The notes beneath the pieces are model-generated. The model did not search any database and had not been told where the DNA came from. It saw nothing but the letters and a program-made list of their open reading frames with translations. Source: Escherichia coli (GTDB taxonomy: Bacteria; Pseudomonadota; Gammaproteobacteria; Enterobacterales; Enterobacteriaceae). From it: DNA of 64,000 nucleotides. This document shows positions 8,135 through 52,178 of the stretch, one piece after another. How positions within the stretch are numbered: position 1 is the stretch's first letter; every line of letters starts with the position of its first letter. Made by a program: the position numbers and the translations under genes. The DNA lies in assembly GCF_003334765.1 (NCBI RefSeq), contig NZ_QOWT01000001.1, one strand, 5' to 3'.

Positions 8135-9313
8135 TTAACCCTGTACTTTTACCTGTCCGGCGGCGTGCTTCGCGCGTTCAATGGCGTCAACAACACTCTC
8201 TGCAGTAGCCAGTGCCACCCCCAGACGACGGCTGCCATCAATTTCCGGCTTACCAAATAAACGAATCTGCAAATCTGCGCCTACGGCATTCTGCACATTA
8301 TCAAACGTGACATTCTGACTGGTCAGTTGTGGCAGAATAACGGCAGAAGCTGCAGGACCATACTGACGGATCCCGCCAACCGGAAGTCCGAGGAAGGCAC
8401 GTACATGCAGGGCAAACTCTGAGAGATCTTGAGAAATTAACGTCACCATCCCGGTATCATGTGGACGAGGGGAGACCTCACTGAAAATCACCTCATCACC
8501 ACAGACAAATAGCTCGACACCAAACAACCCATAACCGCCCAGTGCCAGCACCACTTTACGGGCAATCTCCTGCGCACGTTCAAGGGCAAGCGGGCTCATT
8601 TGCTGTGGTTGCCAGGATTCACGGTAGTCGCCATCTTCCTGGCGATGACCTACTGGTGCACAGAAATGGACGCCATCCACCGCGCTGACGGTTAGCAGGG
8701 TAATTTCGAAGTCAAACTTAACGACGCCTTCAACAATTACGCGGCCCGCTCCGGCGCGACCGCCTTGCTGAGCGTACTTCCATGCCTGAGCAAGTTGCTC
8801 TGCAGAACGAATAAACGTCTGCCCCTTGCCGGAAGAGCTCATCACCGGTTTTACAATACAGGGATAGCCAATGTCAGCAACCGCCTCGCGGAAAAGGCTT
8901 TCGCTATCGGCAAAACGATAAGTGGAAGTGGGCAGCTGCAGCTCTTCTGCCGCCAGGCGACGGATACCCTCGCGATTCATCGTTAATTTCGTTGCGCGAG
9001 CGCAGGGGACAACATTCAGTCCTTCCTCTTCAAGTTGGATCAGCATATCGGTGGCAATAGCTTCGATCTCCGGCACGATATAATGTGGTTTTTCCAGTTC
9101 AACCACACGGCGTAATGCATCACCATCAAGCATATTAATGACATGGGAGCGATGCGCGACATGCATGGCTGGTGCGTCGGCATAGCGATCGACGGCAATC
9201 ACCTCTACGCCGAGACGCTGACACTCGATTGCCACTTCTTTACCCAGTTCACCGGAGCCTAATAACATCACGCGAGTTGCTGCCGGACGCAGCGCAGTGC
9301 CTAATAACGTCAT
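8135..9313 (-). CDS. purT: formate-dependent phosphoribosylglycinamide formyltransferase (GAR transformylase 2)
   Basis: ORF 392 aa ([30 protein letters not shown]...), ATP-grasp family. Confidence 0.95.
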
Positions 9314-9350
9314 AACGAATATCCCCTGATTAATTCCGCGCGCAGTATAA

Positions 9351-9366
9351 ACGAAAACGTTTGCGT
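9351..9366. promoter_or_regulatory. PurR operator (pur box) upstream of purT
   Basis: ACGAAAACGTTTGCGT, 15/16 match to the PurR palindrome ACGCAAACGTTTGCGT, in the purT promoter region. Confidence 0.65.
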
Positions 9367-9409
9367 GTGTCTTTATTGCTGATGTTGATTTCTCAACCGA
9401 AAAGAAATA

Positions 9410-9429
9410 TACTGTATAAAATCACAGTT
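9410..9429. promoter_or_regulatory. LexA box (SOS box) upstream of yebG
   Basis: TACTGTATAAAATCACAGTT, CTGT-N8-ACAG with consensus flanks, about 20 nt upstream of yebG start. Confidence 0.8.
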
Positions 9430-9446
9430 ATTATGAGAGGCTGCAA

Positions 9447-9737
9447 ATGGCGGTTGAAGTTAAATACGTAGTCATTCGTGAGGGCGAAGAGAAAATGTCG
9501 TTTACCAGCAAAAAGGAAGCCGATGCTTATGACAAAATGCTTGATACGGCGGATCTGCTTGACACCTGGCTGACAAATTCTCCAGTGCAAATGGAAGACG
9601 AGCAACGTGAAGCCCTTTCGCTATGGCTGGCAGAACAAAAAGATGTGCTGAGCACCATTCTGAAAACCGGCAAATTACCGTCCCCACAGGTCGTCGGTGC
9701 TGAATCCGAAGAGGAAGATGCCTCACACGCGGCCTGA
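9447..9737 (+). CDS. yebG: SOS-inducible protein YebG
   Basis: ORF 96 aa (MAVEVKYVVIREGEEKMSFTSKKEADAYDKMLD...), LexA box directly upstream. Confidence 0.9.
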   Translation: MAVEVKYVVIREGEEKMSFTSKKEADAYDKMLDTADLLDTWLTNSPVQMEDEQREALSLWLAEQKDVLSTILKTGKLPSPQVVGAESEEEDASHAA

Positions 9738-9755
9738 AGCAACTTGCGCTCCTGA

Positions 9756-10160
<405 letters not shown>

Positions 10161-16910: not shown

Positions 16911-16973
16911 CTGATGACCACCACGCTTTTTATTGACCATTTTGCACGCAAACTGGAAAACCTGGCGTCGTCA

Positions 16974-16981
16974 TCTATTCT
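16974..16981 (+). promoter_or_regulatory. sigma-S type -10 element of sdsR
   Basis: CTATTCTT resembles the sigma-S extended -10 (CTATACT), about 7 nt upstream of the inferred SdsR 5' end. Confidence 0.45.
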
Positions 16982-16987
16982 TAAAGG

Positions 16988-17090
16988 GCAAGGCAACTAA
17001 GCCTGCATTAATGCCAACTTTTAGCGCACGGCTCTCTCCCAAGAGCCATTTCCCTGGACCGAATACAGGAATCGTGTTCGGTCTCTTTTT
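16988..17090 (+). ncRNA. sdsR: small RNA SdsR (RyeB)
   Basis: GCAAGGCAACUAAGCCUGCAUUAAUGCC...ACCGAAUACAGGAAUCGUGUUCGGUCUCUUUUU matches my recollection of SdsR, ending in an intrinsic terminator. Confidence 0.8.
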
Positions 17091-17224
17091 ATCTGTTAAA
17101 AGCCAGAAGCATTTCCTTCGCTGACTTTATAGTCAACCATAACACACACTCTACTGTCTGAGTCCAGCGTTTTTTAACATTCTTGTTAAGATTATGTGAT
17201 CTTTAGCGCGGGAGGAAAATATTG

Positions 17225-50447: not shown

Positions 50448-52133
50448 TTGAAGAAGGTTTGGCTTAACCGTTATCCCGCGGACGTTCCGACGGAGATCAA
50501 CCCTGACCGTTATCAATCTCTGGTAGATATGTTTGAGCAGTCGGTCGCGCGCTACGCCGATCAACCTGCGTTTGTGAATATGGGGGAGGTAATGACCTTC
50601 CGCAAGCTGGAAGAACGCAGTCGCGCGTTTGCCGCTTATTTGCAACAAGGGTTGGGGCTGAAGAAAGGCGATCGCGTTGCGTTGATGATGCCTAATTTAT
50701 TGCAATATCCGGTGGCGCTGTTTGGCATTTTGCGTGCCGGGATGATCGTCGTAAACGTTAACCCGTTGTATACCCCGCGTGAGCTTGAGCATCAGCTTAA
50801 CGATAGCGGCGCATCGGCGATTGTTATCGTGTCTAACTTTGCTCACACACTGGAAAAAGTGGTTGATAAAACCGCCGTTCAGCACGTAATTCTGACCCGT
50901 ATGGGCGATCAGCTATCTACGGCAAAAGGCACGGTAGTCAATTTCGTTGTTAAATACATCAAGCGTTTGGTGCCGAAATACCATCTGCCAGATGCCATTT
51001 CATTTCGTAGCGCACTGCATAACGGCTACCGGATGCAGTACGTCAAACCCGAACTGGTGCCGGAAGATTTAGCTTTTCTGCAATACACCGGCGGCACCAC
51101 TGGTGTGGCGAAAGGCGCGATGCTGACTCACCGCAATATGCTGGCGAACCTGGAACAGGTTAACGCGACCTATGGTCCGCTGTTGCATCCGGGCAAAGAG
51201 CTGGTGGTGACGGCGCTGCCGCTGTATCACATTTTTGCCCTGACCATTAACTGCCTGCTGTTTATCGAACTGGGTGGGCAGAACCTGCTTATCACTAACC
51301 CGCGCGATATTCCAGGGTTGGTAAAAGAGTTAGCGAAATATCCGTTTACCGCTATCACGGGCGTTAACACCTTGTTCAATGCGTTGCTGAACAATAAAGA
51401 GTTCCAGCAGCTGGATTTCTCCAGTCTGCATCTTTCCGCAGGCGGTGGGATGCCAGTGCAGCAAGTGGTGGCAGAGCGTTGGGTGAAACTGACCGGACAG
51501 TATCTGCTGGAAGGCTATGGCCTTACCGAGTGTGCGCCGCTGGTCAGCGTTAACCCATATGATATTGATTATCATAGTGGTAGCATCGGTTTGCCGGTGC
51601 CGTCGACGGAAGCCAAACTGGTGGATGATGATGATAATGAAGTACCACCAGGTCAACCGGGTGAGCTTTGTGTCAAAGGACCGCAGGTGATGCTGGGTTA
51701 CTGGCAGCGTCCCGATGCTACCGATGAAATCATCAAAAATGGCTGGTTACACACCGGCGACATCGCGGTAATGGATGAAGAAGGATTCCTGCGCATTGTC
51801 GATCGTAAAAAAGACATGATTCTGGTTTCCGGTTTTAACGTCTATCCCAACGAGATTGAAGATGTCGTCATGCAGCATCCTGGCGTACAGGAAGTCGCGG
51901 CTGTTGGCGTACCTTCCGGCTCCAGTGGTGAAGCGGTGAAAATCTTCGTAGTGAAAAAAGATCCATCGCTTACCGAAGAGTCACTGGTGACTTTTTGCCG
52001 CCGTCAGCTCACGGGATACAAAGTACCGAAGCTGGTGGAGTTTCGTGATGAGTTACCGAAATCTAACGTCGGAAAAATTTTGCGACGAGAATTACGTGAC
52101 GAAGCGCGCGGCAAAGTGGACAATAAAGCCTGA
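50448..52133 (+). CDS. fadD: long-chain fatty-acid-CoA ligase
   Basis: ORF-track frame from 50382; annotated-length 561 aa starts at TTG 50448 ([22 protein letters not shown]...); AMP-binding signature [12 protein letters not shown]. Confidence 0.88.
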
Positions 52134-52153
52134 GCGTTAAGTCAGTCGTCAGA

Positions 52154-52178
52154 CGCCGGTTAATCCGGCGTTTTTTTT
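52154..52178 (+). terminator. intrinsic terminator downstream of fadD
   Basis: stem cgccgg/ccggcg followed by T8. Confidence 0.85.

Follow-up and report, generated by a model that had tools for sequence, protein, structure and literature searches.

Adjacent PurR and LexA operators in the divergent purT-yebG intergenic region of Escherichia coli

The stretch of DNA analysed here (64,000 nucleotides, hereafter the window, whose coordinates are used throughout) carries purT and yebG in divergent orientation on either side of a 133-bp spacer (9314–9446). The DNA around the two genes is that of Escherichia coli K-12. In a sequence comparison bases 9000–9800 were 100% identical to MG1655, and the same segment was matched in 5426 of 5426 complete E. 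coli genomes. The identities of purT and yebG, both 100% identical to MG1655, agree with the RefSeq annotation of the identical stretch, in which yebG is followed by yebF, yebE and ptrB. The genes, operators and predicted promoter elements of the locus are as follows:

8135–9313, minus strand: purT coding sequence, formate-dependent GAR transformylase, 392 aa (open reading frame; RefSeq annotation of MG1655)
9344–9349, minus strand: predicted purT -10 hexamer TATACT (promoter scan; genomic SELEX hexamers; conservation)
9351–9366, no strand assigned: PurR operator (PUR box) ACGAAAACGTTTGCGT (match to palindrome; matrix; ChIP-chip listing; conservation)
9368–9373, minus strand: predicted purT -35 hexamer AAGACA (promoter scan; genomic SELEX; partial conservation)
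9385–9390, plus strand: predicted yebG -35 hexamer TTGATT (promoter scan; genomic SELEX; TTG conserved at ∼1.0–1.3 bits)
9408–9413, plus strand: predicted yebG -10 hexamer TATACT (promoter scan; genomic SELEX; conservation)
9410–9429, no strand assigned: LexA operator (SOS box) TACTGTATAAAATCACAGTT (core pattern; matrix; published listing; conservation)
9435–9440, plus strand: yebG Shine-Dalgarno sequence GAGAGG (read from the sequence; conserved in the enterobacterial alignment)
9447–9737, plus strand: yebG coding sequence, 96 aa, Pfam PF07130 YebG (open reading frame; annotation; Pfam)
9804–10160, plus strand: yebF (annotation; co-induction with yebG and full LexA control per Thomassen 2010)

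A preliminary description of this DNA had reported a PurR box and a LexA box within about 80 bp, and both were located at the positions it gave, measuring 79 bp end to end. The PurR box, ACGAAAACGTTTGCGT, is a 16-bp imperfect palindrome with a central CG. It departs from the perfect palindrome ACGCAAACGTTTGCGT at a single position, in keeping with the 15/16 match originally claimed. When the window was scanned for ACGCAAACGTTTGCGT with up to 3 mismatches this box was the sole match, and no match with 1 mismatch or fewer turned up in any of 100 shuffles; the box also agrees with the ChIP-derived motif ACGNAAACGTTTGCNT wherever that motif specifies a base. Using a matrix built from 27 published sites (Table 1 of Cho 2011) with the purT target left out, the box scored about 23.5–23.6 bits, the top match in the 64 kb and ∼10 bits above the runner-up (13.4 bits), and was the best of the 28 published PurR sites in a leave-one-out ranking. 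From the exact score distribution, its probability was 1.6e-9 per position, corresponding to an expectation by chance of 1e-4 matches of this quality in 64 kb and 2e-7 in the 133-bp spacer. The identical 16-mer was reported under a PurR ChIP-chip peak at purT by Cho et al. 2011 (PMC3159470), with log2 enrichments of 2.00 with adenine and 1.02 without; the same study listed purT among the directly repressed genes and located PurR motifs at the -10/-35 regions of the regulon promoters. By Sort-Seq, a repressor site between the purT -35 and -10 elements appeared with adenine and vanished in a purR deletion, and PurR was pulled down in the presence of hypoxanthine (Belliveau 2018, PMC6003448).

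The LexA box had been described as being of consensus quality, which held in part. The CTG-N10-CAG core is intact, the left half TACTGTAT is perfect and the pattern TACTGTAT-N6-ACAGT is matched perfectly, but only 15 of the 20 positions of the box agree with the idealised palindrome TACTG(TA)5CAGTA, and it ranks 9th of 18 published E. coli LexA boxes in a leave-one-out comparison. It is a good operator of middling strength. A scan for the idealised palindrome at up to 3 mismatches returned no match in the window, missing the yebG box because of its 5 mismatches, and was replaced by the core pattern together with a matrix from 17 published LexA sites (Table 4 of Thomassen 2010, yebG target left out). 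With this matrix the box scored 20.4 bits, ∼8 bits above the runner-up (12.5 bits), at P = 9.5e-8 per position (exact score distribution); matches of this quality are expected by chance 6e-3 times in 64 kb and 1e-5 times in the 133-bp spacer. Matrix scoring, proposed in the preliminary description as a check, thus placed both boxes first in the window. The core pattern occurred 28 times in the window, compared with 12.4 occurrences expected from shuffles; nearly all of these lie in coding DNA, only that at yebG scores as a LexA box, and the excess is probably a codon-usage effect. The ruvAB LexA box, expected as a positive control within the window, was absent from the window's list of CTG-N10-CAG occurrences. 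A CRP-like site over the LexA box (TGTAT-4-TCACA), picked out by eye, was dropped for its wrong spacing.

A yebG box of the same sequence was listed by Thomassen 2010, who found a UV-induced, LexA-dependent yebG-yebF transcript (tiling array, RT-qPCR) and placed yebF under full LexA control, with lexA mutants examined for yebF and yebE. Given this co-induction and full LexA control, yebF probably belongs to the yebG transcription unit. The LexA and RNA polymerase (RNAP) sites of yebG were confirmed, together with induction by mitomycin C, by Belliveau 2018 (PMC6003448), and Salmonella yebG has been reported to show 41-fold SOS induction with a box 17 bp from the ATG.

A consensus scan of 9200–9560 found two sigma-70-like promoters only, compared with 0.5 expected: AAGACA-18-TATACT on the minus strand for purT and TTGATT-17-TATACT on the plus strand for yebG. 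Genomic SELEX with RpoD holoenzyme gave the same hexamers for the spacer. The two -35 hexamers stand back to back, 11 bp apart, in agreement with the very tight divergent arrangement noted earlier. Taking the hexamers as a guide, transcription would start near 9337 for purT and near 9420 for yebG. The hexamer positions imply that the PurR box fills the purT promoter spacer, occupying 16 of its 18 bp and spanning about -29 to -14 of the predicted start. The LexA box covers about -10 to +10 of the predicted yebG start and ends 17 bp before the yebG ATG; its first four bases are the last four of the predicted -10 hexamer TATACT, so that it overlaps this hexamer as well as the start.

A second possible yebG -10 element, TAAAAT, lies at 9417–9422, inside the LexA box and 9 bp downstream of TATACT. 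The TA at 9408–9409, outside the 20-bp LexA box, is nearly invariant in the enterobacterial alignment and as conserved as the CTG; the same position is not conserved among the other published LexA sites (Thomassen 2010 sites), which supports TATACT as the yebG -10. Sequences that have the TTG all keep the 17-bp spacing, as the alignment is free of gaps from there to TATACT, and a hypothetical -35 element nine bases downstream (9394–9399) showed no conservation in the same alignment. In the passage of Belliveau 2018 (PMC6003448) concerned with this promoter, the yebG RNAP site is placed 9 bp downstream of an older (1997) computational annotation. Since TTGATT/TATACT lies both 9 bp downstream of TTGCTG at 9376 and 9 bp upstream of TAAAAT at 9417, that wording fits either set of hexamers. 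The LexA box overlaps the -10 element whichever of TATACT and TAAAAT is used, and conservation favors TTGATT-17-TATACT as the predicted yebG promoter.

Conservation was assessed using a YebG alignment scan limited to one genome per species, which yielded 80 loci, nearly all from named Enterobacteriaceae genera. At every one of these loci (80/80) purT lies divergently upstream of yebG, with a spacer of 127–144 bp in 79 and 261 bp in one. An alignment of the 79 distinct intergenic sequences from the 80 loci, MG1655 copy included, gave the following average information:

purT -10 hexamer: 1.87 bits/column
PurR box: 1.92 bits/column
purT -35 hexamer: 1.17 bits/column
between the two -35 hexamers: 0.39 bits/column
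yebG -35 hexamer: 0.77 bits/column, carried by the TTG
yebG promoter spacer: 0.33 bits/column
yebG -10 hexamer: 1.80 bits/column
LexA box: 1.56 bits/column

Both boxes and both -10 hexamers are therefore conserved across the 80 enterobacterial species, and the DNA in between is not. The PurR box is identical in 61 of the 80 species and differs at 1–2 positions in the remainder. The CTG-N10-CAG core is kept in 80 of 80, at 12–19 bp from the ATG; the right arm of the LexA box reads TCACAG in E. coli as opposed to ATACAG in most relatives.

The gap between the boxes is 41–44 bp in most species, 51–55 bp in six and 170 bp in one, and this variability indicates that their spacing is not under tight constraint. 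Insertions of 8–12 bp between the -35 regions were seen in Escherichia sp. E1V33, Escherichia whittamii, an Enterobacteriaceae MAG (UBA5654), two Superficieibacter and K. pneumoniae (loci L005, L006, L030–L032 and L072). The 170-bp gap belongs to Klebsiella spallanzanii, where a palindromic element of ∼127 bp sits exactly between the two -35 hexamers (L075:2240-2500) without disrupting either promoter or either operator; with this element included, the 170 nt separating the boxes fold to -57 kcal/mol. This element resembles, we presume, an ERIC/IRU repeat.

Beyond these species, yebG homologues at 51–60% identity keep a strong LexA box (TATACTGTA...CAGTA) fused to TATACT, scoring 22.6–25.9 bits and lying 13–28 bp from the ATG, with no purT neighbor and no PurR-like site. 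Still more distant homologues had neither the LexA box nor purT with its PurR site. As the LexA box is kept without purT in distant homologues, the LexA-yebG unit is older and more widespread than its juxtaposition to purT. This, together with the unconstrained spacing, favors independent modules, and the comparative data suggest that evolution has treated the two modules as separable units. In one further case (L086:1490-2434 and L087:832-1776), a YebG homologue of 37% identity lies directly downstream of a Peptidase_S24 (LexA/UmuD-type) gene and a 36-aa ORF on the same strand; no E. coli-type LexA box was present in the 250 bp upstream.

We consider it very likely that the spacer holds two independent sigma-70 promoters placed back to back, each under simple repression by its own repressor. 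The purT promoter, AAGACA-18-TATACT, would fire leftward, and when purines are plentiful a PurR dimer carrying hypoxanthine or guanine would bind the 16-bp palindrome filling the -35/-10 spacer and block RNA polymerase. The promoter of yebG (with yebF), TTGATT-17-TATACT, would fire rightward; here a LexA dimer on the 20-bp SOS box would cover the end of the -10 element and the start site until DNA damage, through RecA-stimulated LexA self-cleavage, freed the promoter. Steric occlusion of polymerase is the presumed mode of action of both repressors. Site quality, position relative to the promoter hexamers and conservation were established by the present analysis; PurR occupancy, the purR- and adenine-dependent repression of purT and the damage- and LexA-dependent induction of yebG come from the experiments of others. 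For the link of purT to PurR and the purine regulon, made in the preliminary description, promoter geometry, the 80-species footprint, ChIP-chip and Sort-Seq agree, as do geometry, footprint, UV and LexA dependence and the Salmonella induction for the link of yebG to LexA and the SOS regulon. The reporter comparison in purR and lexA backgrounds that it proposed has in substance already been done in published work.

Three other readings were weighed against this one. That the two motifs are chance occurrences without function would find a place only for the runner-up matches, whose scores (13.4 and 12.5 bits) are comparable to the best that shuffled sequence gave; the boxes themselves have the low chance expectations per 64 kb given above, are conserved in 80 of 80 species amid DNA that has otherwise diverged, and have published binding and expression data behind them. 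Conservation and published experiments refute this reading, to which we give practically no credence. Both boxes do lie inside the same short spacer, as would be required if one operator served both genes in the manner of uvrA-ssb, with LexA repressing purT or PurR repressing yebG. The LexA box, however, is centered ∼82 bp upstream of the predicted purT start, beyond the purT -35, and 18 bp lie between the PurR box and the yebG -35 downstream of it. Neither box overlaps the core of the other promoter, so occlusion of the partner is not possible; no operator at purT-yebG overlaps the cores of both divergent promoters, and neither of the published regulon studies includes the other gene of the pair. 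A shared operator is accordingly highly improbable.

The third reading, that the back-to-back arrangement couples purine status and the SOS response, was hinted at in the preliminary description as cross-talk, and nothing was found in support of the hint. Here yebG would respond to PurR bound ∼61 bp upstream of its start or to the polymerase at purT; conversely, SOS-induced transcription of yebG would alter purT. The geometry lends this some plausibility. With the -35 hexamers only 11 bp apart, the polymerase footprints would overlap by ∼28 bp upstream, and the two promoters may not be strictly independent. The PurR box is centered near -61.5 of the predicted yebG start, and, given overlapping upstream polymerase contacts, PurR at this position could tune basal or induced yebG-yebF expression. 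In the converse direction an SOS burst of yebG transcription could transiently change purT, via competition between the promoters for upstream DNA or via local, transcription-driven supercoiling. Where the distance between the boxes has changed in nature (+8 to +12 and +127 bp), the change always comes to within about a quarter turn of a whole number of helical turns, a weak pattern that comprises about four independent events and would arise by chance roughly 6% of the time; it was set aside as a sign of coupling because the independent events are too few. Against coupling, the spacing of the boxes is not fixed (41–55 bp, and 170 bp in one species), the 11 bp between the -35 hexamers and the yebG promoter spacer are the least conserved parts of the region (0.3–0.4 bits), and the LexA-yebG module is present without purT in more distant bacteria. 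In Sort-Seq across the spacer, regulation was reported for each promoter solely within its own 60 bp, and the title of the corresponding figure describes the regulatory features as "directional" (Belliveau 2018, PMC6003448, whose Fig. 5E gives an overview of the entire spacer). The UV tiling-array paper makes no mention of purT, nor does the PurR regulon paper mention yebG. On balance, coupling of the two promoters seems unlikely, though less remote than a shared operator.

The purT promoter resembles the PurR simple-repression promoters of cvpA-purF, purHD and purL in having a 16-bp palindrome with a central CG within the core promoter, and differs from other pur regulon promoters in that its box scores highest and lies wholly inside the -35/-10 spacer. 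Like the gammaproteobacterial LexA promoters of sulA, umuDC and recA, yebG is a damage-inducible gene with a CTG-N10-CAG site over the -10 element and start; compared with these, it has a single box of middling score. At uvrA-ssb a single LexA box lies between two divergent genes. The likeness to purT-yebG is that of divergent genes sharing a short spacer with an SOS box; in contrast, the purT-yebG SOS box does not reach into the promoter of purT, which is governed by an unrelated repressor of its own.

Nothing differs between the region described here and the published K-12 purT-yebG region, which is the same locus with the same PurR 16-mer, LexA box and promoter hexamers (Cho et al. 2011, PMC3159470; Belliveau et al. 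2018, PMC6003448, Fig. 5E; see also Lomba et al. 1997, as cited there). The operators and promoters are already published, and there is nothing new at this locus; the only additions made here are the 80-species footprint and the finding that the spacing of the boxes is unconstrained. The significance beyond correct annotation is small. The region is a textbook case of two unrelated regulons meeting in one short spacer, and could be used as a positive control for motif scanners.

Some further observations concern the spacer and its surroundings. Genomic SELEX flags H-NS at the yebG/purT spacer (9314–9446), and factors other than PurR and LexA may act there; older work reportedly described effects of H-NS and cAMP on yebG. 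The sequence GCTGCAA at 9440–9446, between the yebG Shine-Dalgarno sequence and the ATG, shows conservation about equal to that of the operators, with ∼1.8–2 bits/column for GCTGCA among the 79 distinct enterobacterial spacer sequences. The fold of the yebG leader is unremarkable (z = -1.2), and an Rfam search for an RNA element gave no match in the purT-yebG spacer or the yebG leader. Elsewhere in the window, matches at the Rfam gathering level all corresponded to known E. coli features:

16950–17094: SraC/RyeA (minus strand) overlapping SdsR/RyeB (plus strand)
32583–33043: cspA-type thermoregulator leader
52092–52177: sroD
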